Part shown: positions 1 to 35,845 of the stretch, piece after piece
How positions within the stretch are numbered: position 1 is the stretch's first letter
How the letters are laid out: each line of letters starts with the position of its first letter
IMG/VR virus record: IMGVR_UViG_2671180473_000015
Source: a virus
Taxonomy: Duplodnaviria > Heunggongvirae > Uroviricota > Caudoviricetes
DNA: 35,845 bases
Direction: 5' to 3' (one strand)
Notes under the pieces: model-generated
Databases searched by the model: none
Told to the model about the DNA's origin: nothing
What the model saw: the letters and a program-made list of their open reading frames with translations, nothing else
Translations under genes and position numbers: made by a program

Positions 1-573
1 ATGTTTTGCGAAGAAAAAGTAGCTCAAATGGCTGCATACCTACTTCTTAAGCGAGGTGGGCGCATGGCATATCTGAAATTGATGAAGCTGCTCTATCTGT
101 CTAACCGCAAGTCGATTTTGAAGCATGGCAGGATGATCGGCGAAGATAGCCTTTACTCTATGAAATTTGGTCCAGTCATGTCGAATACGCTGAACTTGAT
201 TCGTGGTAAGGCTGAAGGTATTGGTGACTACTGGTACAACCTGATAGAGACGAACGGGCATGATGTGTTGTTGCGTTCAGATCCGAGGGAAATGGATGCA
301 GACGAGGTCTTTGATGAGTTGAGCCGTGCAGATATCCGGATTTTAGATGAAATCTATTCTCTGTATGGGCATATGAACCGATTTGATCTCGCAAACATGA
401 CGCATTTAGAAAGCGTTTGTCCAGAGTGGCACAATCCTGGCAATTCTCGTAAGCCTATAGACCTGAAAGAAATGCTGATCAGTGAGGGTAAAAGCGAGGA
501 TGAGGCTAATCGTATAATTGGCAAAATGGAAGAATCTCAGAAACTTAAGGAATTTTCTTTGCAATTATCATGA
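1..573 (+). CDS. Panacea-domain (DUF4065) phage-associated protein, SocA/GepA-like putative antitoxin
   Basis: 190-aa ORF starting at window position 1 (N-terminus may lie upstream). The segment AQMAAYLLLKRGGRMAYLKLMKLLYLSNR matches the conserved helix of DUF4065/Panacea proteins as I recall them. Stop overlaps the next ORF start (ATGA at 570-573). Confidence 0.6.
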   Translation: MFCEEKVAQMAAYLLLKRGGRMAYLKLMKLLYLSNRKSILKHGRMIGEDSLYSMKFGPVMSNTLNLIRGKAEGIGDYWYNLIETNGHDVLLRSDPREMDADEVFDELSRADIRILDEIYSLYGHMNRFDLANMTHLESVCPEWHNPGNSRKPIDLKEMLISEGKSEDEANRIIGKMEESQKLKEFSLQLS

Positions 574-989
574 CGGATTATCAGCCATACAGGAAAGGAA
601 CTGTGCTTGCCCCAACTGGGCCATGCAATCATCTTCATGTGATTTGTAATGATCCTGTTTATTACCCCGTTAACGATTGTTATTGTGTTTTAGTTGTTAA
701 TATTTCTAGTATCAAGGATGGTGTCCCCCACGATCCGTCTTGCGTCTTGAATTCTGGTGATCATCGCTTTATCAAGCATCCAAGTTATGTTGTTTACGCT
801 GAAGCTATAATTTGGCGAGTGGATAACATGGTTAGAAAGCAGCGATCGGGTGAGATTTCCGTTCATGATGATATGCCAGAAGCTACATTCAATAGAATTC
901 TGGACGGTTTTGATATATCTGATGAAGTTACGCCAAAGAACCTTAAATTTAAAAATAAATATTGCGTATCATCTATTGATGATGAGTAA
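570..989 (+). CDS. hypothetical protein translationally coupled to the Panacea-domain gene; candidate toxin partner
   Basis: 139-aa ORF whose ATG overlaps the upstream stop (ATGA). No family recognised. Contains an R-x6-H motif (RSGEISVH) reminiscent of HEPN, which is speculative. AT-rich. Confidence 0.45.
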   Translation: MTDYQPYRKGTVLAPTGPCNHLHVICNDPVYYPVNDCYCVLVVNISSIKDGVPHDPSCVLNSGDHRFIKHPSYVVYAEAIIWRVDNMVRKQRSGEISVHDDMPEATFNRILDGFDISDEVTPKNLKFKNKYCVSSIDDE

Positions 990-1028
990 ACAACAGGAAT
1001 TGTTTCGGTATAGCTTCTGGAGTTTTCT

Positions 1029-1202
1029 ATGGAAGATCAAAAAGCAACCAAGCCACAGGTTAAGTTCGACACAATGAAAGCATTCGCAGGTATGGGTGCT
1101 GCTGTTGAAGTTCTGATGAAGGCTGCTCCTAATGCGTTCACTCACGCTACTGTCTCTGGTAAAGAGCAGCAGGGTAAGCTTCGTCGTCGCAAAGCAGCAT
1201 GA
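1029..1202 (+). CDS. small hypothetical protein (57 aa)
   Basis: ATG at 1029, TGA at 1200-1202, immediately followed by a strong intrinsic terminator. Below the 60-aa cut-off of the ORF track. No recognisable family. Confidence 0.3.
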   Translation: MEDQKATKPQVKFDTMKAFAGMGAAVEVLMKAAPNAFTHATVSGKEQQGKLRRRKAA

Positions 1203-1220
1203 TCATAGCTGGTGCTTTTT

Positions 1221-1248
1221 GAAAACCCGCCTTTAGGCGGGTTTTTTC
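1221..1248. terminator. bidirectional rho-independent terminator
   Basis: A-run, stem CCCGCC / GGCGGG with loop TTTA, then T-run (gaaaacccgcctttaggcgggtttttt). Sits between convergent genes ending at 1202 (+) and 1250 (-). Confidence 0.6.
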
Positions 1249-1249
1249 T

Positions 1250-1531
1250 TTAGTGATGTTCTTTGCCCTTCTGTTTGCCTGTTCTGACCTGTTCCCACTC
1301 GATACGTCCTTCTTCTCGTCTTTTGTCTATGTATTCCGCAAGATCCTGAATATTGATGCAACGTTTTGCTTTTTGTGATGTACCGATGCGATATGTAGGT
1401 ACAGGCAACTTACAAGCGTTTGCTTTTGCTTCTGCTGTGGCTGGACTCATACCAAAGTATTTTTGACTAACTGCTGAGAGTTCAATGTTTGGGGTATTGA
1501 ATTCAGCCATCAGTAAAAACAAGGTATTCAT
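1250..1531 (-). CDS. PrtN/AlpA-like excisionase-family small DNA-binding protein (putative)
   Basis: 93-aa ORF. N-terminus MNTLFLLMAEF and the motif PTYRIGTSQKAKRCINIQDLAEYIDKRREE resemble the PrtN / phage excisionase-like family from memory. Confidence 0.5.
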   Translation of the reverse strand: MNTLFLLMAEFNTPNIELSAVSQKYFGMSPATAEAKANACKLPVPTYRIGTSQKAKRCINIQDLAEYIDKRREEGRIEWEQVRTGKQKGKEHH

Positions 1532-1567
1532 ATCATTTCTCCATCATAACCGGCTGCACCCGGTGAG

Positions 1568-2383
1568 TTACTTATTCATTTCAATAATATTATTTTCTAT
1601 CATTGATTTATTTAAAACCAAAGAAGGAGCAAGATGGTTGTCTATTTTAAACAATGCATAACTTTTAAACTGTTGGTGATATCCGTAACTAATAAGGATG
1701 CTAGAAAAATCTCTTAATTCATCTTCTTTTAAAAAATTAAAATGAAATGGGTTGTCACCATTTATGAACAATGAAACATCTATTATGCAGTATTTCTCTC
1801 CGTTGTCATTTGCATAGAAAAAAATATAAGACATTCTGTTTGTTAAGACAATGCCATTAAATTTTCTTATGTCTGTAGCTATTTTGTTTTCCATGTTTGG
1901 TGCTACATATTTATTTTCAGAAATACATTTAATTTCATCTCCAGATGTCGTGATTATATAAAAATGAAACTTATCAGAAATATCTAACTTAACTACGCCA
2001 TCATTATTGTAAAGGCTGCTAAATTTTGGTGGTTCAACTTTTAAAGAATCATAGTTCTTTAAAAGAAGAGGGGAGTCAAATTTAATAACTTGTAGTATCC
2101 CTTTACCTTCAACCTCCATATTGATTGAAGATATAGCAATTGCATTATCTCTTTTATTATTCAGGATTATGGTTGATATATGCATGTCATATATTCTACT
2201 TGCATTTGCTGAATACGACACTGTCACCTTTTTTGATATTTTTTGCACGCCAAAATATATAGTGAAGGCAGCGGCAAGAATAGATAAGAATTTAATGTCA
2301 AATAAGGACCATAGCCACATTAGTTGCTCAATTGCTTCAGAGTTAATCATTTGCTTTACCATTATCGCTGTAATACAACACAT
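1568..2383 (-). CDS. hypothetical single-pass membrane protein encoded in a strongly AT-rich segment (moron-like)
   Basis: Long minus-strand ORF (track 1568..2401 with TTG start; first ATG gives 2383). Hydrophobic N-terminal segment FLSILAAAFTIYFGV followed by a long soluble domain. Local AT content is far above the rest of the prophage. Start codon uncertain (ATG candidates at 2383, 2362, 2350; no clear SD). Confidence 0.5.
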   Translation of the reverse strand: MCCITAIMVKQMINSEAIEQLMWLWSLFDIKFLSILAAAFTIYFGVQKISKKVTVSYSANASRIYDMHISTIILNNKRDNAIAISSINMEVEGKGILQVIKFDSPLLLKNYDSLKVEPPKFSSLYNNDGVVKLDISDKFHFYIITTSGDEIKCISENKYVAPNMENKIATDIRKFNGIVLTNRMSYIFFYANDNGEKYCIIDVSLFINGDNPFHFNFLKEDELRDFSSILISYGYHQQFKSYALFKIDNHLAPSLVLNKSMIENNIIEMNK

Positions 2384-2504
2384 GTGTGTATATATACGCA
2401 ATGCAATTATTTTGCAAGTGCTTCATTTACTATCAATAGCTACGTCACGTTATTGTTTAATGGTTCTTTATAGGGGCGGCAATAGTTAAAATTATCGCTT
2501 CCGT

Positions 2505-2526
2505 AAATGCCCCCGCAGGGGCATTT
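2505..2526 (-). terminator. stem-loop downstream of the YfdQ-like gene (weak terminator or RNA stability element)
   Basis: Perfect 9-bp stem AAATGCCCC / GGGGCATTT with a 4-nt loop. No clean U-tract on the minus strand, so termination efficiency is uncertain. Confidence 0.3.
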
Positions 2527-2538
2527 GCAGTAATGAAA

Positions 2539-3363
2539 TCAGGCGGTGAAAGTACCAATAAAGGTTTCTACTTTGCTGTCTTTGAATTTCTCAACAAGCA
2601 GATCACGAAATTCGTTAGCCATTTCTTCCTGTACCGCTTCCAGCTGAATAATGCGCAGAACCAGTACAGGACGATCGCCAGTGATAATGCTGAGGCGTAA
2701 TTTAAACGGACGTTCTTTCAGACCTTCAAACGGAACGCATTTAAATTCAAATGCCACTGGCATAATGTCTTTGGTCTTCGCTTCGACAGACTCCATCAGG
2801 GAGCGTTTGCCGCTGAAGTCATTATCTTCAAAATCAGCGGTCTGGTTCGCTTCAATTGTGATTTTACGGATCGCCGCAGCCGCTTTGGTTGCCTGAATGG
2901 CGTCACCATTAGCATCAAAGCCCACAAGGTAGTCGGCCCAGTCTTCAATCCATTCTGCCAGTGACTTCTGGGAGTTACGCTCGCCATTAACAGACAACAG
3001 AGCAGAGAACGGAGCTGTCTTTTTCAGTTTGAGAGTGGCGGTGTTATCTGCGTGACCTGGTTCATCAATAGTACCCAGGTTAAGAACACTGACGGCACGC
3101 ATATTATCAGCATCGATAAAGCAGCGGGTGCCTTCATCTGCAAGATCTTTAGAATAACGAGTAAAGTCATCGATGCTGGCAGTGGAAAGCGCACCACGGA
3201 AACGGAAACGATTTAAATTTAATTTTTCCAGATCATGAATGCGGAAATTCTCAGGCAATGCCACAGCATCGGCACCAATCTTACTGATAATTTCATTAAC
3301 ACCCTGAGCAGAAATAAGGGCATGGATTTGATTAATTGCGGTTGCGTCTAAGTTCTGAGACAT
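2539..3363 (-). CDS. DUF2303 / YfdQ-like prophage protein
   Basis: 274-aa ORF. Length and sequence character match what I recall of the YfdQ (DUF2303) family of E. coli CPS-53-type prophages. Follows the YfdP-like gene in the same leftward operon. Confidence 0.55.
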
Positions 3364-3428
3364 AATAAGTCCTCACTATATAAAGATATTCAGTGATGAG
3401 ATAAATAATCGGTTAATTAAGAACGATA

Positions 3429-3791
3429 TTAATGACCTGCTGCGCGGAGTTTTCCGTCAGGTTCACCGGCAAGAGTCAGTAATTGTCCCTGGTCTTCCTG
3501 CAGAATAGTCAGGCGACCACCGCGATTGACATACATCGGCGTTTCGGTGGTGTCTTCTTCGGAAATTTTCCCGCGGTTAGTCGGGCGAACATATGAGAGT
3601 TTGTGTTTGATTTTCACACGGTTCTCATCAAATGGTTCGATTTCCAGGTTGAGTGAGACCTTACCTTTGGTTTTCGTGTTCATCACACCGGAAGCGACTT
3701 CACTGAGAACTGCGCCGATTTTGGTTTCAAATACGCCGCCGTCCAGCTCCCCAATAAATGCCTGCACATCAGTACTGCGTTCGCTAGCCAT
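3429..3791 (-). CDS. conserved prophage early-left protein (YfdP-like), about 120 aa
   Basis: The track ORF 3429..3977 starts with TTG far upstream. An internal ATG at 3791 (MASERSTDVQAFIGELDGG...) has a good SD (AGGAGC, 6-7 nt upstream) and gives a 120-aa product. Confidence 0.55.
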   Translation of the reverse strand: MASERSTDVQAFIGELDGGVFETKIGAVLSEVASGVMNTKTKGKVSLNLEIEPFDENRVKIKHKLSYVRPTNRGKISEEDTTETPMYVNRGGRLTILQEDQGQLLTLAGEPDGKLRAAGH

Positions 3792-3840
3792 TTTGCTGCT
3801 CCTAATCATATCGACCCTGCAAGGTCGGTTGGTTTCTCCA

Positions 3841-3927
3841 CAAAACAGAGAAGAACACCTGCGGTGGCAGCCGCCCGGATGGATTTGGTTATGAGCCCGT
3901 CGTCCGGTGATGCTCTTCTCTGTTTTG
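3841..3927 (-). repeat. 87-bp inverted repeat with perfect 14-bp arms (long RNA stem in the early-left leader)
   Basis: Arms CAAAACAGAGAAGA (3841-3854) and TCTTCTCTGTTTTG (3914-3927) are exact reverse complements. The 59-nt spacer contains further self-complementary GC-rich segments. Lies just upstream of the YfdP-like start on the transcribed (minus) strand. Confidence 0.6.
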
Positions 3928-3928
3928 T

Positions 3929-3978
3929 AAAAAGAGCGGTACCAGCCGGAAGCAAGTGTACAAACTGGTACCGCCAAA
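3929..3978 (-). ncRNA. DicF-like small RNA candidate ending in an intrinsic terminator
   Basis: Minus-strand sequence TTTGGCGGTACCAGTTT...CTGGTACCGCTCTTTTT: an 11-bp stem (GGCGGTACCAG / CTGGTACCGCT, one G-U) followed by a U-run. Its 5' half closely resembles the core of DicF (TTTGGCGGTATCAGTTT) as I recall it. Located in the early-left operon downstream of the repressor gene, as DicF is in Qin. The 5' end is not determinable. Confidence 0.4.
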
Positions 3979-4406
3979 GCAGTGGCTGTTGTGGTGACCG
4001 GTGCTGATCTCCGGCTTGCGGTTATTTCAGACTCTCACGGGCGTTTAATTGCCCCGCCGAACAGCTCTTTTCCGCATTAGCTGCAATGTCTTTCGCGCAT
4101 CAGCCTGCGCATTCACCACAACGCTGAGAGCACTTAGCCAGTTACGGCACCACACTTTGTCGCGGTTCCATAAATGTCCTCATCGTTGCACCCTGGTCTC
4201 TTCCCAGGCGTCAAACCGAATCGCCACGCTGGTTAGGCGTCTTATCAGCATCATCATTGACTTGCACATTCCGGCTACCTGGTTTGTTTGCCCGAGCAAG
4301 GAGTGGATTGTCCCCTTTAACGTCCCCAGACCGCTAACGACGCATGTGCCATACGCCGTGTTACAACCAAATTTTGTTTAATCTTGCCTGTGCTGTGTTT
4401 CTTTTA

Positions 4407-4439
4407 GATACATTATGTATCCCAAAGGTACATTGTCAA
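4407..4439 (-). promoter_or_regulatory. PL-like early-left promoter overlapped by two operator palindromes
   Basis: On the minus strand: perfect -35 TTGACA (plus 4434-4439), 16-nt spacer, -10 CATAAT (plus 4412-4417). Overlapping palindromes TGTATCCCAAAGGTACA (4416-4432) and GATACATTATGTATC (4407-4421) share half-sites with the operators next to the repressor gene. Confidence 0.6.
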
Positions 4440-4440
4440 G

Positions 4441-4466
4441 TATAAAAAAACCTGCCGAAGCAGGTT
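4441..4466 (-). terminator. rho-independent terminator immediately downstream of the repressor gene
   Basis: Stem AACCTGC / GCAGGTT (loop CGAA) followed on the minus strand by a 7-nt U-run. The repressor stop is at 4478-4480. Confidence 0.55.
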
Positions 4467-4477
4467 ATAAATATTGA

Positions 4478-5152
4478 TTAGGCCTTTATTATGTATCTTC
4501 TTGGTTTTCCTGAGAAAATCACTGTACCAATTATAGAGCAATTACCGTTAATCTTAATGTAAGGCTCAGGCCAGTTTGGGTTTAATGCTTTGAGATAACG
4601 CTGTGTTCCATCTTCTATCAACCGCTTGAAGGTGGTTTCGCCTGTATCGTGCATCAATGCAATAACGTCGTCACCGTGGCAGGCAGGGACTTCAGGATCA
4701 ACAAAAATCATGTCTCCCGGGCGGTACTCATCAATCATTGAATCACCAATCACCCGCAAGATATAAGTCATTTCGCCACAGGGTACAGGGCAGGGATAAG
4801 TTTCTGCTGTGCTCAAATCAACCTCAGAATAGCCAACTTCTTTCCATGCTCCGGCCTGTACCCATGATATGACAGGGACTAACGTTATTTGTTTGTTAGT
4901 GATTGAAACGTCAGGTTTTTTTGTGATGTTCGTTGTCTGGTGTTCTTGATCAAGCCATCCGACAGGCAGGTCGAAACATTTTTCGATGTGCCGTGCCATG
5001 CTGTCACCGATATTTTTAGTTGCACCATCTCCCATAAACCTGCTGGTCTGGGTTGGCTCGCGATCAATCATGGTGGCAAAGGAAGAATTCCCGCCAACAC
5101 CATCTCTCAGTTTTCTGGCGTTAGACCGCCGGATGTCATGGACTGTTTTCAT
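4478..5152 (-). CDS. CI-like prophage repressor (HTH domain plus S24 LexA-like autopeptidase domain)
   Basis: 224-aa ORF. C-terminal domain carries the GDSM Ser motif (LRVIGDSM) and a downstream Lys (TFKRL) typical of S24 self-cleaving repressors. Divergent from the cro-like gene, with operator palindromes between them. Confidence 0.85.
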   Translation of the reverse strand: MKTVHDIRRSNARKLRDGVGGNSSFATMIDREPTQTSRFMGDGATKNIGDSMARHIEKCFDLPVGWLDQEHQTTNITKKPDVSITNKQITLVPVISWVQAGAWKEVGYSEVDLSTAETYPCPVPCGEMTYILRVIGDSMIDEYRPGDMIFVDPEVPACHGDDVIALMHDTGETTFKRLIEDGTQRYLKALNPNWPEPYIKINGNCSIIGTVIFSGKPRRYIIKA

Positions 5153-5169
5153 AAAGAAATTAAAACCTT

Positions 5170-5236
5170 TGTACCGATAAGGTACAAGTATCTTGAAGGT
5201 TCATCTCAATCATGTAATATGTATACCGGAGGTACA
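5170..5236. promoter_or_regulatory. OR-like operator/promoter region (divergent PRM / PR)
   Basis: Two 17-bp palindromes: TGTACCGATAAGGTACA (5170-5186) and TGTATACCGGAGGTACA (5220-5236), consensus TGTAyM-N5-GGTACA. Candidate PR elements: -35 TTGAAG (5193-5198) and -10 TAATAT (5215-5220), the latter overlapped by the second operator. Repressor start is at 5152, cro-like start at 5243. Confidence 0.6.
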
Positions 5237-5242
5237 TATTGT

Positions 5243-5443
5243 ATGAAAGCGTATTGGGACTCTTTAACCAAAGAACAGCAGGGTGAGTTGGCCGGAAAAG
5301 TTGGCTCAACACCAGGCTACTTACGGCTGGTTTTCAATGGTTATAAAAAAGCCAGTTTTGTGCTGGCTAAAAAACTTGAGCAATGCACGTCAGGTGCAAT
5401 TACGAAATCTGACTTAAGACCGGATATCTATCCGAAAGATTAA
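5243..5443 (+). CDS. Cro-like small HTH repressor
   Basis: 66-aa ORF with SD GGAGGT about 9 nt upstream of the ATG. Divergent from the repressor gene. The track ORF 4940..5443 is an upstream extension across the operators and is rejected. Confidence 0.7.
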   Translation: MKAYWDSLTKEQQGELAGKVGSTPGYLRLVFNGYKKASFVLAKKLEQCTSGAITKSDLRPDIYPKD

Positions 5444-5474
5444 CAGAACACCTTCAATTTTTAACCACAGAACG

Positions 5475-6038
5475 ATGAGGCTAACCGTGGGTAAGCATCA
5501 CTGGAAAGTAGAAAAACAGCCTGAGTGGTACGTGAAAGCTGTCAGAAAAACTATCGCGGCGTTGCCGGGGGGTTACGCTGAAGCTGCTGAGTGGCTGGAT
5601 GTAACAGAGAACGCTTTATTCAACCGCCTTCGTGCAGATGGCGATCAGATTTTCCCGCTGGGATGGGCAATGATTTTACAGCGCGCGGCTGGCACTCACT
5701 ACATTGCGGATGCTGTCGCACAGTCTGCTGGTGGGGTGTTTGTATCGCTTCCTGAAATTGAGGAAGTAGAGAACGCCGATATAAACCAGCGCCTGCTGGA
5801 AGTCATCGAACAGATCGGGAGTTACTCAAAGCAGATTCGTTCGGCAATCGAAGATGGGGTAGTGGAGCCACACGAGCAGACAGCAATTAATGATGAGTTG
5901 TATCTGTCAATTTCGAAGCTCCAGGAGCATGCAGCACTGGTCTACAAAATCTTTTGCGCTCCAGAAAAGAGTGACGCCCGCGAGTGTGCAGCTCCGGGCG
6001 TCGTGGCGTTTTGTGTCTGTGGAGAAACTAACGCATGA
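5475..6038 (+). CDS. early regulatory protein at the cII position (CII/YdaT-like, family uncertain)
   Basis: 187-aa ORF directly downstream of cro. Stop overlaps the next start (ATGA). Family assignment is from position and weak recollection only. Confidence 0.4.
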   Translation: MRLTVGKHHWKVEKQPEWYVKAVRKTIAALPGGYAEAAEWLDVTENALFNRLRADGDQIFPLGWAMILQRAAGTHYIADAVAQSAGGVFVSLPEIEEVENADINQRLLEVIEQIGSYSKQIRSAIEDGVVEPHEQTAINDELYLSISKLQEHAALVYKIFCAPEKSDARECAAPGVVAFCVCGETNA

Positions 6039-6871
6039 ACAGTTTAACGGCAAATAACCGTTTGTCGCAACAGCTGGTGGTCAGCGTCGCTGAACACCTG
6101 TTGTTACGGCATGAATGCAGATTACCAAATCACCTGGCTGTAAGTAACCACAGAGAACTTTACCTGACTGTGGGGGGCGAGTTGTGCAGGAACTTAACCG
6201 CTGGTTTCGTGACGGAAGAGGACTTTATGTTCATGTTATTCGTTGGGAGCCAGAAACACAGCGCGTTATCTATCTTCGCAAAGACTACCCGCATGAGTGC
6301 TTTAGTCCTTTGTGGAAATTCAGGCGTGATTTTGTTGAGTGTGAAGGACCACCAGCACATTGATTCTGCCATTCCGGGACGTTACACTGTTCAGGCACCT
6401 TATAAAGCGGGTGCCGGGATTGGCGTCCTGGAATTGATCAAGGCGATATATGACGCGCCAGCGTCTTTTTTATCGTCCGCATTTGCTCACATCAAAGTTA
6501 TGGTGGGCTGGGCGGGGGCATCGAAAGATGCGCCGGTTTCCTTGATCACCGGTTACGCCAACCCCGTTCAGTTCACCACCAGCGAAATTGGCGTTTCCGG
6601 TGGTGGAAGTATTTCACCGATCAAGGAGGCTGCCATCATGGCTACTGTCCCAGCCCTCACTCGTCTGAATGATGAAGACTTACATAAACTCAGTTATGTA
6701 ACAACTGCACTACGTGCTCTGCGCAAGGTAACTCTTTCGGATCCGCAGGCACATCAGGTTCTGGTAGAAACCCTTCTTAACTTGCAAGCTGAACGTATTC
6801 GTCTGGCGGATAAGGCTAATTTTCATATTCACCGTCTCCTGAATATCAGCGGAGGGCATCGTCATGCTTAA
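6035..6871 (+). CDS. hypothetical protein (gene structure uncertain)
   Basis: 278-codon open frame with SD GGAG upstream of the ATG at 6035, translationally coupled at both ends. No family recognised. An alternative 59-aa ORF in another frame (6184..6363) starts just after a G6 homopolymer, so a frameshift or overlapping genes cannot be excluded. Confidence 0.35.
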   Translation: MNSLTANNRLSQQLVVSVAEHLLLRHECRLPNHLAVSNHRELYLTVGGELCRNLTAGFVTEEDFMFMLFVGSQKHSALSIFAKTTRMSALVLCGNSGVILLSVKDHQHIDSAIPGRYTVQAPYKAGAGIGVLELIKAIYDAPASFLSSAFAHIKVMVGWAGASKDAPVSLITGYANPVQFTTSEIGVSGGGSISPIKEAAIMATVPALTRLNDEDLHKLSYVTTALRALRKVTLSDPQAHQVLVETLLNLQAERIRLADKANFHIHRLLNISGGHRHA

Positions 6872-7100
6872 TCCGTTGATCCTCAATATTTGCCGTTTGC
6901 TTCAGCGTAAAAAAATATCAATTCCTACAGTTGGGCAGTGGTACACCACGCCTGCAGGGCATGTTCTACGTGTTAGCCTGGTTGACCGTGAATGCCAGAA
7001 GGTGATTTGTGAACCGCTGGGCCGTAATTACCGCGTCAGTATGCCGCTTATAGCCTTTCGCTCCGGAAAAAACATGAAGCATCTCGGAGGTGCAGCATGA
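6864..7100 (+). CDS. small hypothetical protein (78 aa)
   Basis: ATG with upstream GGAGGG SD. Start overlaps the upstream stop and its stop overlaps the O-like start (ATGA), i.e. translational coupling within the early-right operon. Confidence 0.4.
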   Translation: MLNPLILNICRLLQRKKISIPTVGQWYTTPAGHVLRVSLVDRECQKVICEPLGRNYRVSMPLIAFRSGKNMKHLGGAA

Positions 7101-7915
7101 GTATGGAGCTGATGGTTAAAGCGATGAAAATTCGAGTGGGTAATCCATTGCGAAAACTGGTTCTGATCAAGCTGGCTGATAATGCCAGCGATCAGGGTGA
7201 GTGCTGGCCCAGCTACCAGCATATTGCTGACCAGTGCGAAATTAGCAAACGTTCTGTGATGAATCATATTGCGGCCCTTTGTGAGTCCGGGCTGGTAAAA
7301 AAAGTCACCCGGAAAGGTGAAAAAGGTAACTCAAGTAATATCTATCTCCTTCATCTGGATGGTGCAGGAGATTCACTAGGGGGTAGTGCAAATAATTCAC
7401 TATCTGGTGCAGCAAATTCACCAGGTAGTGCAGGAGTTGCACCAGGGGGTAGTGCAGGAGATTCACCCAGAACCAGTCACTCTTTTGAACCAGTCAAAGA
7501 ACCAGTCAATGAACCAATAGCTGTTGGTGCATCAGTTGATGAGTCCGTGCGAGTTCGTTCAAACCGACCGGAATACTCTCCGGAGTTTGAGCAGGCATGG
7601 CTGGCATATCCCAAACGTGCTGGTGGCAATTCAAAATCTGCAGCCTTCAAAGCCTGGAAAGCCCGTTTGAATGAGGGAGTAAACCCCGAAACCATGCTGG
7701 AAGGTGTGAAACGCTACGCGGGATGGGTATCTGCGATGGGTAACAGCGGCACACAATTTGTGAAACAGGCTGTCACGTTCTTTGGTCCGGATCGTCATTT
7801 CGAAGAATTCTGGGAAGTTCCTGCGGTATCTGCAGCCAGACGCGAGGACCCGTACTTCAAAGCCAGTTACGACAACGTGGACTACAGCCAGATCCCGGCA
7901 GGATTCAGGGGGTGA
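7097..7915 (+). CDS. replication initiator, lambda O-like (N-terminal winged-HTH replisome organiser)
   Basis: 272-aa ORF. N-terminus (KLVLIKLADNASDQGECWPSYQHIADQCEISKRSVMNHIAAL) is the classic phage replication-initiator HTH. A Gly/Ser-rich linker is encoded by an internal iteron array, as in lambda O. Confidence 0.7.
   Translation: MSMELMVKAMKIRVGNPLRKLVLIKLADNASDQGECWPSYQHIADQCEISKRSVMNHIAALCESGLVKKVTRKGEKGNSSNIYLLHLDGAGDSLGGSANNSLSGAANSPGSAGVAPGGSAGDSPRTSHSFEPVKEPVNEPIAVGASVDESVRVRSNRPEYSPEFEQAWLAYPKRAGGNSKSAAFKAWKARLNEGVNPETMLEGVKRYAGWVSAMGNSGTQFVKQAVTFFGPDRHFEEFWEVPAVSAARREDPYFKASYDNVDYSQIPAGFRG
7361..7508 (+). repeat. iteron array (candidate replication origin) inside the O-like gene
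   Basis: Five direct repeats of about 19 bp (consensus GGTAGTGCAGGAGATTCAC) at roughly 7361, 7382, 7406, 7424 and 7448, followed by three copies of AACCAGTCA at 7471, 7488 and 7500. Confidence 0.55.
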
Positions 7916-8406
7916 TCATGAGTCTTTTGAATGAAGTTCAGAAATTCATTGAAGCCCATCCGGGGTGTACTTCCGGAGACATTGCGGATGCTTTTGCAGG
8001 TTACTCACGGCAGCGCGTTCTGCAGTCAGCAAGCAAGTTACGTCAGAGTGGGCGTGTGGCTCACCGTTATGAAGGAGATACACGCAGACATTTCCCACGC
8101 CTGACTGAGAGAGCGCAGGAGCCGGAACCACAACCAGTTCGTGAAACCAGACCTGTGCGCAATTTCTATGTCGGCACTAACGATCCCCGGGTGATTTTGT
8201 GCCTGACCCGCCAGGCGGAAGAACTGGAGTCCAGGGGCTTATACCGTCGTGCTGCAACGGTGTGGATGGCGGCATTCCGTGAAAGCCACTCCCAGCCAGA
8301 ACGAAACAATTTTCTGGCGCGTCGTGAGCGGTGCTTACGGAAAAGCAGCAAGCGCGCTGCATCGGGTGAAGAGTGGTATCTGTCAGGGAATTACGTGGGG
8401 GCTTAA
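7912..8406 (+). CDS. winged-helix protein with PerC/ANR-like C-terminal region (putative regulator)
   Basis: 164-aa ORF. C-terminal AEELESRGLYRRAATVWMAAF...NFLARRERCL resembles the PerC motif (LEEAGYWRRAAECW...RRKQC) from memory. Occupies the position where lambda has P. Confidence 0.45.
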   Translation: MIMSLLNEVQKFIEAHPGCTSGDIADAFAGYSRQRVLQSASKLRQSGRVAHRYEGDTRRHFPRLTERAQEPEPQPVRETRPVRNFYVGTNDPRVILCLTRQAEELESRGLYRRAATVWMAAFRESHSQPERNNFLARRERCLRKSSKRAASGEEWYLSGNYVGA

Positions 8407-9059
8407 TGAGTAATAAATATTGCCAGGCGCTGGTGGAGCTGCGGAACAAACCAGCCCATGAACTGAAGGAAGTGGGCGATCAGTGGCGCACGCCGGATAA
8501 CATTTTCTGGGGAATTAACACCCTGTTTGGCCCGTTTGTTCTGGATCTGTTCACTGATGGTGATAACGCCAAATGTGCCGCTTATTACACTGCGGAAGAC
8601 AACGCGCTGGCGCATGACTGGTCTGAACGTCTTGCGGAGCTTAAAGGTGCTGCCTTTGGTAATCCCCCGTACAGCCGCGCCAGTCAGCATGAAGGGCAAT
8701 ACATCACCGGCATGCGTTACATCATGAAACATGCCAGTGCCATGCGTGATAAGGGCGGACGCTATGTTTTCCTGATCAAAGCTGCCACCAGCGAAGTGTG
8801 GTGGCCGGAAGATGCAGATCATATTGCTTTTATTCGCGGGCGTATTGGTTTTGAACTGCCTGCCTGGTTTATCCCGAAGGACGAGAAGCAGGTGCCGACA
8901 GGCGCTTTCTTCGCTGGTGCTATTGCTGTTTTCGACAAGACCTGGAAGGGACCGGCAATCAGCTACATCGGGCGCGATGAACTTGAGGCATGTGGTGAGG
9001 CGTTTCTGGCGCAGGTTCGCCAGCAGGCGGAAAAACTGGTCAGGGAGATGGCGGCATGA
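8406..9059 (+). CDS. phage Dam-family DNA N6-adenine methyltransferase
   Basis: 217-aa product from the ATG at 8406. NPPY catalytic motif (AFGNPPYSR) and overall similarity to phage Dam methylases (PF05869-like) as I recall them. No adjacent restriction endonuclease. Confidence 0.8.
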   Translation: MSNKYCQALVELRNKPAHELKEVGDQWRTPDNIFWGINTLFGPFVLDLFTDGDNAKCAAYYTAEDNALAHDWSERLAELKGAAFGNPPYSRASQHEGQYITGMRYIMKHASAMRDKGGRYVFLIKAATSEVWWPEDADHIAFIRGRIGFELPAWFIPKDEKQVPTGAFFAGAIAVFDKTWKGPAISYIGRDELEACGEAFLAQVRQQAEKLVREMAA

Positions 9060-9382
9060 CGACGTTAACTCAATGCCAGCAGCAGGTGCTGGATATGCTG
9101 ATTTCTTACCAGAAAGAACGTGGCTTCCCGCCAACCAATCAGGAGGTGGCAACCATGCTGGGATACCGTTCAGTGAATGCAGCGGTGGAACATCTTCGCG
9201 CACTGGAGAAAAAAGGCGTCATCACGATAAAGCGTGGCATGGCCCGGGGTATCACTCTTCATACCGCGGTGAAGGACGACGACAGCGAGGCGGTCGGGAT
9301 TATCCGCTCACTGCTTGCCGGTGAGGAAAACGCCAGGCTGCGTGCAACCCACTGGTTACATGAGAGAGGCCTGAAAGTATGA
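9056..9382 (+). CDS. LexA N-terminal DNA-binding-domain protein lacking the S24 peptidase domain
   Basis: 108-aa ORF. LTQCQQQVLDMLISYQKERGFPPTNQEVATMLGYRSVNAAVEHLRALEKKGVITI aligns closely with the E. coli LexA N-terminus ([55 protein letters not shown]). The protein ends before any Ser-Lys peptidase domain. Confidence 0.7.
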   Translation: MTTLTQCQQQVLDMLISYQKERGFPPTNQEVATMLGYRSVNAAVEHLRALEKKGVITIKRGMARGITLHTAVKDDDSEAVGIIRSLLAGEENARLRATHWLHERGLKV

Positions 9383-9768
9383 AGCTGATCCTGCCTTTCC
9401 CGCCCAGCGTGAACACGTACTGGCGACACCCCAACAAAGGGGCATTTGCTGGTAAGAGCCTGATAAGCGCGGCGGGGCGAAAATTTCAGAGCGCGGCGTG
9501 CGCAGCAATAGTTGAGCAGTTACGTCGTCTGCCAAAACCAACGTCGGCACCTGCTTCAGTGGAGATCGTGTTGTTTCCTCCGGATAACCGGATCCGCGAT
9601 CTGGACAACTATAACAAGGCGCTGTTTGACGCCCTGACCCACGCGGGGGTGTGGGAAGACGACAGCCAGGTGAAAAGAATGCTGGTGGAGTGGGGACCGG
9701 TTATCCAGAAAGGGAAGGTCGAGATCACTATCAGTAAGTATGAGAAACCGGCGGGTGCAGCCGCCTGA
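9379..9768 (+). CDS. rusA: RusA-family Holliday junction resolvase
   Basis: 129-aa ORF starting MKLILPFPPSVNTYW, the RusA signature, with conserved acidic residues (DLDNYNKALFDAL). Confidence 0.85.
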   Translation: MKLILPFPPSVNTYWRHPNKGAFAGKSLISAAGRKFQSAACAAIVEQLRRLPKPTSAPASVEIVLFPPDNRIRDLDNYNKALFDALTHAGVWEDDSQVKRMLVEWGPVIQKGKVEITISKYEKPAGAAA

Positions 9769-9787
9769 TCAAGAGGAGAAACGAAGT

Positions 9788-10597
9788 ATGAATAATCTGA
9801 TGGTCATTGATGGTATTGAAGTTCGTCGTGATGCTTATGGGCGTTACAGCCTGAACGATCTGCACAGGGCAGCCGGGGGAGAACAAAAAAACCGCCCGAA
9901 ATACTGGCTCTCCAATAAGCAAACCTGTGAATTGATTGAACAACTTTTCACCGAGGGTGGAATTCCGCCTCTGGAACAAAATCAACCAGTTAGCGTCATT
10001 AATGGCGGAAATAACCAGGGGACGTATGTCTGCAAAGAACTGGTGTATGCCTATGCAATGTGGATCAGCCCGTCATTCCATCTGAAGGTGATCCGTACTT
10101 TCGACATGGTAACCAGCGCACCGGAAAAATTATCCGGACAGGCTGCTGACAAGATGCAGGCTGGCGTGATCCTGCTGGACTTTATGCGCCGGGAATTAAA
10201 TCTGTCTAACTCATCAGTGCTTGGAGCCTGTCAGAAGCTTCAGGAGGCTGTTGGCTTACCGAATCTGGCACCGCGCTATGCCATTGATGCTCCTGCTGAC
10301 GCGCCTGATGGCTCAAGTCGCCCCACGCTGTCGCTGAGTGCACTGCTGAAGCAGTATGGTATCCGCCTGACGGCTAATCAGGCATATCACCAGATGGTGA
10401 AGCTGGGGATCGTTGAACAACGCGAACGATACAGCCGTACCGCGATTAACAACATCAAAAAATTCTGGTCGCTGACGGCGAAAGGCTGCATGTTCGGCAA
10501 GAACATCACCAGTCCTGCAAATCCGCGCGAGACGCAGCCGCATTTCTTCGAATCCCGATTCCCTGAGCTGTTAAAGCTGCTCGATACCGTTCATTGA
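9788..10597 (+). CDS. KilA-N domain protein (antirepressor-like)
   Basis: 269-aa product from the ATG at 9788 (SD GAGGAG upstream). N-terminal KilA-N domain (VIDGIEVRRDAYGRYSLNDLHRAAGGEQKNRPKYWLSNKQTCELIEQL...YAMWISPSFHLKVIRTF). Confidence 0.7.
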   Translation: MNNLMVIDGIEVRRDAYGRYSLNDLHRAAGGEQKNRPKYWLSNKQTCELIEQLFTEGGIPPLEQNQPVSVINGGNNQGTYVCKELVYAYAMWISPSFHLKVIRTFDMVTSAPEKLSGQAADKMQAGVILLDFMRRELNLSNSSVLGACQKLQEAVGLPNLAPRYAIDAPADAPDGSSRPTLSLSALLKQYGIRLTANQAYHQMVKLGIVEQRERYSRTAINNIKKFWSLTAKGCMFGKNITSPANPRETQPHFFESRFPELLKLLDTVH

Positions 10598-14900: not shown

Positions 14901-15140
14901 NNNNNNNNNNNNNNNNNNNNNNNNNNNNNNNNNNNNNNNNNNNNNNNNNNNNNNNNNNNNNNNNNNNNNNNNNNNNNNNNNNNNNNNNNNNNNNNNNNNN
15001 NNNNNNNNNNNNNNNNNNNNNNNNNNNNNNNNNNNNNNNNNNNNNNNNNNNNNNNNNNNNNNNNNNNNNNNNNNNNNNNNNNNNNNNNNNNNNNNNNNNN
15101 NNNNNNNNNNNNNNNNNNNNNNNNNNNNNNNNNNNNNNNN
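14901..15140. other. N-run (240 nt) - assembly gap or masked sequence
   Basis: Continuous n characters; removes the holin 3' end and the holin-endolysin junction. Confidence 0.95.
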
Positions 15141-29500: not shown

Positions 29501-29548
29501 CAACAGCAGGCCCGTGATGGTGGTCGGTTAAGTGGAGCATATCGGTAA
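26483..29548 (+). CDS. H: tail tape measure protein (lambda gpH-like)
   Basis: About 1021 aa from the ATG at 26483 (SD GGAGGTG). Long coiled-coil, Ala/Gln/Arg-rich sequence and size typical of siphovirus tape measure proteins. Confidence 0.9.
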   Translation: MDQIANLVIDLGIDAAEFKNEIPRIKNLLNGAASDAERSSARMQRFMERQTQAARQTTQAASSAATAASVHAQTVEKNAQAHERMSREVEKTRQRMEALSQKMREEQAQAMALAEAQDKAAAAFYRQIDSVKQASAGLQELQRIQQQIRQARNSGGIGQQDYLALISEVTAKTRVLTQAEEEATRQKVAFIRQLKEQATRQNLSSSELLRAKAAQLGVSSAAEVYIRKMEQAGKATHSLGLKSAAARQEIGVLIGELARGNLGALRGSGITLANRAGWIDTLMSPKGMMLGGVIGGIAAAVYGLGKAWYDGQKEGEEFNRQLSLTGHYAGVTAGQLWTLSRAISGNGITQHAAAGALAQVVGSGAFRGNDIGMVARAAAQMERSVGQSVSDTINQFKRLKDDPVNAAKALDNELHFLTATQLEQIRVLGEQGRSSDAARIAMSALAEETGRRTADIDNNLNALGSTLKYLSDLWSRFWDAAMNIGREDSLDEQISALQEKVSRAKRLPWTASSSQVEYDQQRLNELQEKKRQKDLQDAKEQAERNYQEQQKRRNAENAALNRMNETEAARHQREIARINSMQYADQAVRDAAIQRENERYEKALASGKKKTREPRNDEATRLLLQYSQQQAQVEGQIAAARQSAGIATERMTEAHKQLLALQQRISDLDGKKLTADEKSVLARKDELIQALTLLDVKQQELQKQTALNELKKKTIQLTSQLAEEERAQRQQHDLDIATVGMGDQQRQRYQVQLSLRQKYQQQLEQLRRDSEQKGTYNTDDYRKAEQALTESLNRQLNENRRYWQQLEVVQGNWKNGVLRAFQDFTVDADNTAGTAEQVFSSAFSNMGNGLATFVTTGKLNFKSFTSSVLSDMAKILAQATMMKSIKGIGSVLGFDLSSLSLNANGGIYQSADLSRYSGTVVNRPTFFAFAKGAGVMGEAGPEAILPLRRGADGKLGVVADIGGSGMAMFAPQYNIEINNDGTNGQIGPAALKVVYDLGKKAAADFMQQQARDGGRLSGAYR

Positions 29549-29877
29549 TGGAGACGTTTCACTGGAAAGTGCGCCCGGATATGAATGTGGTATCAGAGCC
29601 GAAAGTGGTGACAGTGAAGCTGGGCGATGGTTATGAACAGCGTCGTGCGGCGGGACTGAATAACCAGTTGTCGACTTACAGCGTGACGATACGTGTTCGT
29701 AAATGTGAACACCCATCTTTAAAAGCCTTTCTGGAACGGCACGGTGGCGTCCGCGCATTTCAGTGGACGCCACCTTATGACTGGAAGCCGATCAGGGTGG
29801 TTTGTCGTAAATGGTCGGCAAGCGTGGGGGCGTTGTGGGTAACCATAACGGCAGATTTTGAACAGGTCGTGGCATAG
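29548..29877 (+). CDS. M: minor tail protein M
   Basis: 109 aa, the same length as lambda M, with similar sequence (METF.WKV.P.M.V.S.P.V..V..GDGY.QR...GLN..L.TYSVT). Confidence 0.85.
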   Translation: METFHWKVRPDMNVVSEPKVVTVKLGDGYEQRRAAGLNNQLSTYSVTIRVRKCEHPSLKAFLERHGGVRAFQWTPPYDWKPIRVVCRKWSASVGALWVTITADFEQVVA

Positions 29878-29886
29878 GAGTCTCTG

Positions 29887-30545
29887 ATGCAGGATATTCC
29901 ACAGGAAACACATCATGAGACGACACGCCTCACTCAGTCAGCCCAGGTGGTGCTCTGGGAAATCGATCTGACAGAGGTCGGTGGAGAACGTTATTTTTTC
30001 TGTAATGAGCAGAACGAAAAAGGTGAGCCGGTCACCTGGCAGGGGCGACAGTATCAGGCGTATCCCATTCAGGGGACGGGATTTGAACTGAACGGCAAGG
30101 GCAGTGCTGCCCGTCCGNGGCGGAAGATCTGCAGAGTCTGGTCGGCGGAACGGTGGTCCGGCGTAAGGTTTACGCCCGTTTTCTGGATGCGGTGAACTTC
30201 GTCAACGGAAACAGTGACGCCGATCCGGAGCAGGAGGTGATCAGCCGCTGGCGCATCGAGCAGTGCAGCGAACTGAGCGCGGTGAGTGCCTCTTTTGTAC
30301 TGTCCACGCCGACGGAAACGGACGGTGCCGTTTTTCCGGGGCGCATCATGCTTGCTAATACCTGCACCTGGACCTATCGCGGCGATGAGTGCGGTTATCA
30401 CGGTCCGGCGGTCGCGGATGAATATGATCAGCCGACGTCCGATATCACGAAGGATAAATGCAGCAAATGCCTGAGCGGCTGTAAGTTTCGCAATAACGTC
30501 GGCAACTTTGGCGGCTTCCTTTCCATTAACAAACTTTCGCAGTAA
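29887..30545 (+). CDS. L: minor tail protein L, reading frame broken at a single N (likely collapsed assembly gap)
   Basis: N-terminal part (track ORF 29887..30195) and C-terminal part (30153..30545) both match lambda L almost residue-for-residue from memory. About 14 codons expected between ...GKGSAARP and AEDLQSLVGG are missing exactly at the n at 30118. Confidence 0.75.
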
Positions 30546-30550
30546 ATCCC

Positions 30551-31294
30551 ATGACACAGACAGAATCAGCGATTCTGGCGCACGCCCGGCGATGTGCGCC
30601 AGCGGAGTCGTGCGGCTTCGTGGTGAGAACACCGGAGGGGGAAAGATATTTTCCCTGCGTGAATATCTCCGGTGAGCCGGAGGAGTATTTCCGGATGTCG
30701 CCGGAGGACTGGCTGCGGGCAGAGATGCAGGGTGAGATTGTGGCGCTGGTCCACAGCCACCCCGGTGGTCTGCCCTGGCTGAGTGAGGCCGACCGGCGGC
30801 TGCAGGTGCAGAGTGATTTGCCGTGGTGGCTGGTCTGCCGGGGGGCGATTCACAAGTTCCGCTGTGTGCCACATCTTACCGGGCGGCGCTTTGAGCACGG
30901 GGTGACGGACTGTTACACGCTGTTCCGGGATGCTTACCATCTGGCGGGGATTGAGATGCCGGATTTTCATCGCGGGGATGACTGGTGGCGTCACGGTCAG
31001 AATCTCTATCTGGATAATCTGGAGGCTACAGGGCTGTATCAGGTGCCGTTGTCAGCGGCGCAGCCGGGCGATGTGCTGCTGTGCTGTTTTGGTTCATCGG
31101 TGCCGAATCATGCCGCCATTTACTGTGGTGACGGCGAGCTGCTGCACCATATTCCTGAACAACTGAGCAAACGAGAGAGGTATACCGACAAATGGCAGCG
31201 ACGCACACACTCCCTCTGGCGTCACCGGGCATGGCACGCATCTGCCTTTACGGGGATTTACAACGATTTGGCCGCCGCATCGACCTTCGAGTGA
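30551..31294 (+). CDS. K: tail assembly protein K (JAB/MPN plus NlpC/P60-like domains)
   Basis: 247-aa ORF. MTQTESAILAHARRCAPAESCGFVV...HSHPGG... matches lambda K from memory. Confidence 0.85.
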   Translation: MTQTESAILAHARRCAPAESCGFVVRTPEGERYFPCVNISGEPEEYFRMSPEDWLRAEMQGEIVALVHSHPGGLPWLSEADRRLQVQSDLPWWLVCRGAIHKFRCVPHLTGRRFEHGVTDCYTLFRDAYHLAGIEMPDFHRGDDWWRHGQNLYLDNLEATGLYQVPLSAAQPGDVLLCCFGSSVPNHAAIYCGDGELLHHIPEQLSKRERYTDKWQRRTHSLWRHRAWHASAFTGIYNDLAAASTFE

Positions 31295-31896
31295 AAACGG
31301 GGTCCGAAGCCATCCGGGCGCTGGCCATGCAGATCCCGGCGTTTCGTCAGAAACTGAATGAGGGCTGGTATCAGGTGCGCATTGCCGGGCGTGATGCAGG
31401 CGAAAATGAATTATCTGCCCGTCTTAATGAGCCGCTGGCAAATGGTGCCGTGATCCACATCGTGCCGCGTCTGGCGGGAGCTAAAAGTGGCGGTGTGTTT
31501 CAGGTGGTGCTTGGGGCGGCGCTGATTGCGGTGGCATGGTGGAACCCTGTGGGCTGGCTGGGGNNNNNNNNNNNNNNNNNNNNNNNNNNNNNNNNNNNNN
31601 NNNNNNNNNNNNNNNNNNNNNNNNNNNNNNNNNNNNNNNNNNNNNNNNNNNNNNNNNNNNNNNNNNNNNNNNNNNNNNNNNNNNNNNNNNNNNNNNNNNN
31701 NNNNNNNNNNNNNNNNNNNNNNNNNNNNNNNNNNNNNNNNNNNNNNNNNNNNNNNNNNNNNNNNNNNNNNNNNNNNNNNNNNNNNNNNNNNNNNNNNNNN
31801 NNNNNNNNNNNNNNNNNNNNNNNNNNNNNNNNNNNNNNNNNNNTCAGCACGGCAGACGAAGGGGATGGTGGTCAGGTTGTGGTGATTGGTCGCTGA
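31192..31896 (+). CDS. I: tail assembly protein I (interrupted by an N-run)
   Basis: Starts MAATHTLPLASPGMARICLYGDLQRFGRRIDLRV as in lambda I. Overlaps the 3' end of K in another frame, as in lambda. The middle is lost in the N-run 31564-31843. Ends ...STADEGDGGQVVVIGR. Confidence 0.75.
   Translation: MAATHTLPLASPGMARICLYGDLQRFGRRIDLRVKTGSEAIRALAMQIPAFRQKLNEGWYQVRIAGRDAGENELSARLNEPLANGAVIHIVPRLAGAKSGGVFQVVLGAALIAVAWWNPVGWLGXXXXXXXXXXXXXXXXXXXXXXXXXXXXXXXXXXXXXXXXXXXXXXXXXXXXXXXXXXXXXXXXXXXXXXXXXXXXXXXXXXXXXXXXXXXXXXSTADEGDGGQVVVIGR
31564..31843. other. N-run (280 nt) - assembly gap or masked sequence
   Basis: Continuous n characters inside gene I. Confidence 0.95.
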
Positions 31897-31956
31897 TGCA
31901 AAATGTTTTATGTGAAACCGCCTCCGGGCGGTTTTGTCGTTTATGGAGCGTGAGGA

Positions 31957-35502
<3,546 letters not shown>

Positions 35503-35520
35503 AATATTTATAACCCCAAT

Positions 35521-35550
35521 AAAGGGCGTCAGGAATGACGCCTTTTTTAT
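35521..35550 (+). terminator. rho-independent terminator after J
   Basis: Stem GGCGTCA / TGACGCC with loop GGAA, followed by TTTTTT. Confidence 0.6.
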
Positions 35551-35572
35551 TGCAGAAAAGCGAGAGGTAATT

Positions 35573-35845
35573 ATGCGTAAAGTTTGTGCAGCCATTTTGT
35601 CCGCAGCCATTTGCCTGGCCGTATCCGGTGCGCCTGCATGGGCGTCTGAACATCAGTCCACGCTGAGCGCGGGGTATCTTCATGCCTCGACGAACGTCCC
35701 CGGCAGTGATGATCTGAACGGGATTAACGTGAAATACCGTTATGAGTTTACGGACACACTGGGGCTGGTGACGTCATTCAGCTATGCAGGAGACAAGAAT
35801 CGCCAGCTGACCCGTTACAGCGATACCCGCTGGCATGAAGATTCC
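35573..35845 (+). CDS. lom: Lom-like outer membrane protein (Ail/Lom family), 3'-truncated by the window end
   Basis: ATG at 35573 with SD GAGAGG. Signal peptide MRKVCAAILSAAICLAVSGAPAWA. The motif GINVKYRYEFTD matches lambda Lom GINVKYRYELTD. The ORF runs off the window end. Confidence 0.8.
   Translation, partial: MRKVCAAILSAAICLAVSGAPAWASEHQSTLSAGYLHASTNVPGSDDLNGINVKYRYEFTDTLGLVTSFSYAGDKNRQLTRYSDTRWHEDS

Follow-up and report, generated by a model that had tools for sequence, protein, structure and literature searches.

The C-terminal cysteine cluster of gpL, the tail tip protein L of bacteriophage lambda, has been reported to bind an Fe-S cluster. With lambda gpL (NP_040597.1; PDB 8IYK chain L), the gene considered here shares a length of 232 aa after repair of its sequence, membership of the Pfam family PF05100, and the gene order H-M-L-K-I-J. 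The intact homologue and lambda gpL are 93% identical, differing in that the N-terminal 20 residues and residues 72–76 of the present L come from another allele. The head genes of lambda are unlike those of this prophage, in whose reference a ClpP-like protease/major capsid fusion is annotated. Closer still is WP_001152385.1 (‘phage minor tail protein L’), encoded by the prophages that adjoin dusA in E. coli A14, CDF6, and EC12. The surrounding 30 kb are colinear with these prophages at a DNA identity of 99.9–100%, and both halves of L match this protein at 100%; the WP_001152385.1 gene differs in holding 41 bases that are absent at a single N in the present record, and in five synonymous differences at 30341–30359.

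On the technical side, the closest described cases are minimal-placeholder (single N) joins in short-read drafts. SSPACE puts one ‘n’ where the gap estimate is zero or below, and gap closers can leave one N behind. Single N insertions in scaffolds have been described as ‘indicative of construction anomalies’ (PMC5902842), one N counts as a gap (PMC4445982), and with ALLPATHS-LG and Meraculous, adjacent contigs left unmerged have received zero or negative gap estimates (PMC5368935, PMC3158087). The locus described here resembles such joins in that the N stands at a discontinuity, other gaps of the same record are sized, and the sequence belongs to a region that is multi-copy in most complete E. 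coli genomes; it differs in that no more than 41 nt are hidden, all of them inside one gene, and for this reason it mimics a frameshift pseudogene.

Results

The window, meaning the whole stretch of 35,845 nucleotides that was analyzed, represents positions 9999–45843 of the draft scaffold CWVR01000019.1 (GCA_001256935.1; 45,845 bp). Stretches fetched from CWVR01000019.1 were exact substrings of the window including the N’s, which therefore belong to the public draft record. The exact 247-aa sequence of K was present in one contig only of a 153-billion-gene index, namely CWVR01000019.1, and our literature search returned no paper that mentions CWVR01 or GCA_001256935. The scaffold ends inside J, two bases past the window end (35845 corresponding to record position 45843), so that other contigs have to hold the attachment site and the tail-fibre end of the prophage.

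The region around L is arranged as follows:

29548..29877, plus strand: gene M, minor tail protein, intact, 0 aa differences from the A14 homologue
29887..30117, plus strand: 5’ part of L, codons 1–77, 100% protein identity to residues 1–77 of WP_001152385, read here as the end of the left contig
30118, no strand: single N, read here as a join in place of 41 bases (L nt 232–272), also in CWVR01000019.1
30119..30545, plus strand: 3’ part of L, comprising the last base of codon 91, codons 92–232, and the stop, read here as the start of the right contig
30551..31294, plus strand: gene K, JAB/NlpC-P60 tail tip protein, intact, 247 aa, 2 aa differences from A14

Exactly one isolated N is present in the window, at 30118, the four further N runs all being long. 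Alignment with A14, CDF6, and phage mEp460_ev081 revealed that this N replaces the 41 bases ACACTGACGGTTTCTAACCTGCACGGCATGGTCACCGGGAT, with both flanks perfect; these bases correspond to L nt 232–272, start with ACACTG, end with CCGGGAT, and are present in every close relative. As written, the left flank of the N ends with ...GCCCGTCCG and the right flank begins with GGCGGAAGATC...; a true deletion would link ...CCCGTCCG directly to GGCGGAAG.... The net loss amounts to 40 nt and therefore shifts the L reading frame, and in a megablast comparison of 29850–30600 intact relatives spanned 791 bases versus 751 in the window. Missing from the protein are residues 78–91 (TLTVSNLHGMVTGM, 14 codons), with residues 1–77 and 92–232 retained. 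The first-pass annotation had described L as broken exactly at a single N, with about 14 codons absent and a change of frame across it, and this description was borne out by the comparison with three intact prophages, the loss now being specified as exactly 41 bases.

As written, the first ORF (29887..30195, 102 aa) comprises 77 true L residues, an X, 24 out-of-frame residues, and a stop, and the second L fragment is a 130-aa ORF at 30153..30545; L of the source record is split into 102-aa and 130-aa products in the collection’s gene calls, too. The sequence as written contains no full-length alternative ORF for L, and an uninterrupted frame of about 232 codons appears once the 41 reference bases are inserted: this in silico repair results in a 699-nt ORF whose 232-aa product equals WP_001152385. 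We attribute the split ORF to the record, not to the gene. Taken literally, a frameshifted sequence lacking an alternative full-length ORF would speak for L having truly lost 40 or 41 bp, with the junction base called ambiguous, resulting in a frameshifted pseudogene and a prophage devoid of a tail tip, which we consider very unlikely. Determined sequence over the junction, as expected for a deletion pseudogene, is lacking because the junction base is an N, and for the same reason the record does not assert a deletion junction. As the chance of a lone ambiguous base coinciding with the only indel breakpoint in ~35 kb would be about 1 in 35,000, we infer a common cause for the N and the discontinuity.

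Both parts of L are readily recognized. The gene order deduced from ORFs and reference annotation is H(TMP)-M-L-K-I-J. Phage_tail_L (PF05100) was detected on the 5’ half (profile positions 1–49, 71.9 bits, E=5.9e-20) as well as on the 3’ half (profile positions 64–206, 219 bits, E=5.2e-65), each above the gathering cut-off of 25 bits, with 331.6 bits obtained for the intact homologue; the intact L protein also matched the lambda tail tip protein L in PDB 8IYK over its full length. The claim that both halves follow lambda L almost residue for residue holds for the C-terminal part (residues 92–232, 138/141 identical, 98%), but the N-terminal match is looser (residues 1–77, 65/77 identical, 84%). 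Within the 218 retained codons we found 0 non-synonymous and 5 synonymous differences. In the C-terminal stretch ...NTCTWTYRGDECGY...KCSKCLSGCKF... every cysteine is as in lambda gpL; by sequence, L retains the C-terminal cysteine cluster, with metal binding being a putative property here.

The N at 30118 is one of five gaps in the window, the lengths of which compare with the A14 prophage as follows:

14901..15140, no strand: scaffold gap, 240 N, 429 bases in A14, difference -189
30118, no strand: single N, 41 bases in A14, difference -40
31564..31843, no strand: scaffold gap in gene I, 280 N, 223 bases in A14, difference +57
32455..32681, no strand: scaffold gap in gene J, 227 N, 262 bases in A14, difference -35
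34451..34666, no strand: scaffold gap in gene J, 216 N, immediate flanks unalignable to A14, mosaic part of J

Since the lengths of the N runs miss those in A14, the runs represent gap-size estimates, and one N for 41 bases (-40) falls within the error range of the other gaps (-189 to +57). The length difference at 32455–32681 is no multiple of 3, and the frame carried over the other gaps is no less arbitrary. The presence of four sized N gaps on the same scaffold, three of them in genes adjacent to L, argues against a real deletion at the fifth site. The idea that the N runs are length-preserving masks was rejected, as their lengths differ from A14 and the same N’s stand in the NCBI record. 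Judged from A14, the gap at 14901–15140 probably takes out the end of the holin gene and a YdfR-family gene of the lysis cassette; EC12 is arranged differently there.

The nearest finished prophage is that of E. coli A14 (NZ_CP028760), adjoining dusA. Window positions 1–10100 are 100% identical to A14, and the alignment blocks covering 10039–32454 (~22 kb) are ungapped, every length difference coinciding with an N. Across all five gaps, gene order and orientation are as in the reference prophage. The other fully mapped genes are all intact (23/23), with 0–2 aa differences from A14, but the view of an otherwise pristine tail module is only partly correct, as three of the long N runs break up genes I and J. 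The combination of 23 intact neighbouring genes and an L sequence devoid of non-synonymous changes in its 218 codons shows no sign of decay and speaks against a genuine deletion.

The junction as written, with any base allowed at the N, gave 0 matches in genome_contigs, viral_contigs, and metagenome_contigs. The intact junctions of the allele present here served as positive controls and were recovered from viral contigs, the left one from at least 120 and the right one from 106. In 25/25 of the best among 4,122 matching complete-genome records, the flanks were 141 nt apart. That the junction is absent from the three collections and from these best 25 records, the prophage itself being present in several strains at 99.9–100% identity, again weighs against a real deletion, as does the breakpoint, which shows 0 nt of microhomology on either side. 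A slipped-strand deletion was rejected, given a breakpoint without direct repeat or microhomology, and so were overlapping contig ends (a true negative gap), since the flanks share no overlap and leave a gap of 41 bases. In sum, none of the signs that would support a deletion pseudogene, i.e., the same junction in the three collections or the best 25 records, microhomology, or decay of L or its neighbours, was seen, and what was seen is an N at a discontinuity with perfect flanks in a scaffolded draft with estimated gaps.

Mismatches to A14 number 6 in 14,977 nt (0.04%) left of the N versus 7 in 1,445 nt (0.48%) right of it, where five synonymous ones form a 19-bp cluster, corresponding to a 12-fold jump in mismatch density at 30118. 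The coincidence of this divergence step with the N is a further point against a real deletion. Two features on the right-hand side are relevant here:

30119..31563, no strand: contig-sized block of 1,445 bp from the N up to the following gap, comprising the 3’ part of L, K, and the 5’ part of I, and belonging to a multi-copy prophage repeat
30341..30359, plus strand: foreign-allele tract in which five synonymous changes cluster relative to A14, CDF6, EC12, and lambda L

The block at 30119–31563 turned up 14,853 times across 4,388 complete E. coli genomes (median of 3 and maximum of 15 per genome), and the equally long block left of the N at 8,332 places (median 2, maximum 8 per genome). Four of the five gaps lie within 4.5 kb of L-K-I-J, and such clustering on the multi-copy L-K-I-J sequence is the pattern expected from short-read assembly breaking on prophage repeats. 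On both sides of the N, the best matches are A14, CDF6, and EC12 (100% left, 99.5% right, colinear). An origin of the right block from a different prophage lineage was rejected, as the three references are best on both sides and only the 19-bp tract at 30341–30359 deviates. This tract is located 223 bp right of the N and also occurs in 18 IMG/VR viral contigs that are otherwise just 94.6–97.3% identical to 30119–31563; it could result from gene conversion or from reads mixed in from a second prophage copy.

Directly left of the N, L nt 218–231 are allele-specific relative to lambda L; within the missing 41 nt, three positions vary between alleles, and the right-hand sequence is nearly invariant among lambdoid prophages. 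The ends of stored viral-contig stretches were ~3-fold denser per kb downstream than upstream of mid-L among loci chosen through patterns inside L, and in the same L-ascertained loci these ends did not focus on L nt 232–272; as regards the breakpoint, the downstream excess is suggestive only.

Gaps of related kinds are documented in other assemblies. In the independent draft GCA_034543675.1 (JAWVUH010000097.1; L249:2754-2985), 232 N take the place of L nt 61–291, a stretch of 231 bases in A14. A second draft being gapped in the same part, the variable 5’ part of L can be regarded as a site of recurring assembly trouble. We encountered six single N’s in the 221 viral loci that were fetched. At two of them (L037:5497, L099:3050), relatives read straight through and the N is just an ambiguous base with no sequence hidden, and the one in L221 gave no informative match. 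The remaining three (L188:8240, L188:10180, L218:5990) sit around the end of the tape-measure gene in draft-derived prophage contigs, with flanks that are 1.6–1.8 kb apart in most related loci. As single N’s thus fall in both classes, an N alone is not diagnostic; the N at 30118 belongs with the L188/L218 class, where sequence is hidden between the flanks.

In four further loci (L248:2694-3393, L250, L251, L252), L is split by 1–2-nt indels at L nt 284–306 in sequence free of N’s, the sources being three contigs of 4.9–5.0 Mb and one metagenome scaffold. These indels cluster beside a GATC site (gaagatc/tg/cag), and other tail genes are split as well in L250 and L252; long-read errors that recur systematically at Dam sites are one possible cause, true frameshifts the other. 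It follows that L lesions, or sequencing errors mimicking them, are not rare, and the small frameshifts in these assemblies thereby lend some credit to a real deletion in the present record.

Discussion

Our analysis makes it highly probable that the N at 30118 marks the unmerged join of two neighbouring contigs with 41 bases of L left unassembled, L itself most likely being intact. Judged from the sequence comparisons, L in the organism would most likely be an intact 232-codon gene identical to WP_001152385, embedded in a functional tail module. The first-pass annotation had favored an unresolved assembly gap over a pseudogene, and this preference gained support from the estimated lengths of the N runs, the restriction of indels to N’s, the lack of microhomology, and the mismatch jump, further from the failure to find the junction as written in any of the three collections, the lack of codon decay, and the precedents for N gaps. 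The N is thus almost certainly an ordinary assembly artefact that entails no new biology.

As to how such a join may arise, we envisage that a scaffolding or gap-closing program joined two adjacent contigs that it could not merge; with the gap estimated at about zero, it would then have written the smallest placeholder, a single N, although this presumes a certain behaviour of the assembler. The break probably falls at this site because, in most E. coli genomes, several lambdoid prophages share a nearly identical L-K-I-J, and short-read assemblies come apart where copy-specific sequence passes into shared sequence. A second lambdoid prophage in the source genome, if present, would cause the assembly graph to branch exactly at the break.

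A true loss of 40 bp would imply that the dusA-adjacent prophage has been inactivated very recently by a microhomology-free deletion in L. Prophage decay is common in E. coli, which is in favor of such an event; in view of the evidence presented above, we nonetheless hold it to be quite improbable. If it were true, a widely distributed and conserved lambdoid prophage would have been caught at the first step of domestication. Even less credible is a chimeric join, in which the two sides of the N derive from different lambdoid prophages of one genome and were wrongly linked, so that neither L copy is correct: the 12-fold mismatch jump, the 19-bp tract of the other L allele 223 bp to the right, and the multi-copy state of the region in most E. 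coli genomes would fit, but A14, CDF6, and EC12 are the best, colinear matches on both sides and all five gaps conform to the reference in order and orientation; this reading is in any case a sub-case of an assembly artefact and not a biological alternative.

The main value of this probable contig join inside L is cautionary. Under most annotation conventions a single N is too short for gap status, and pipelines therefore read through it, with the consequence that L is reported either in two pieces or as a pseudogene with a frameshift. Tallies of prophage completeness or of pseudogenes that draw on drafts of this kind would mistake the prophage for a tail-defective one.

Two observations concern the right-hand end of the prophage. 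Along J, the closest relative switches: A14 is closest at 31844–32454 (99.8% versus 95.9%), the sequence at 34420–34822, immediately around the fifth N run, has no alignable counterpart in A14 J, and at 34823–35845 identity is 92.9% to A14 versus 96.7% to CDF6 and EC12. J is therefore either mosaic between lineages or has been assembled from more than one copy. Outside the window, the finished references carry genes with a reverse-transcriptase domain and a SLATT domain, flanked by the tail fibre assembly gene on one side and the integrase gene on the other (L004:30421-32320), a module that looks like defence-type cargo.
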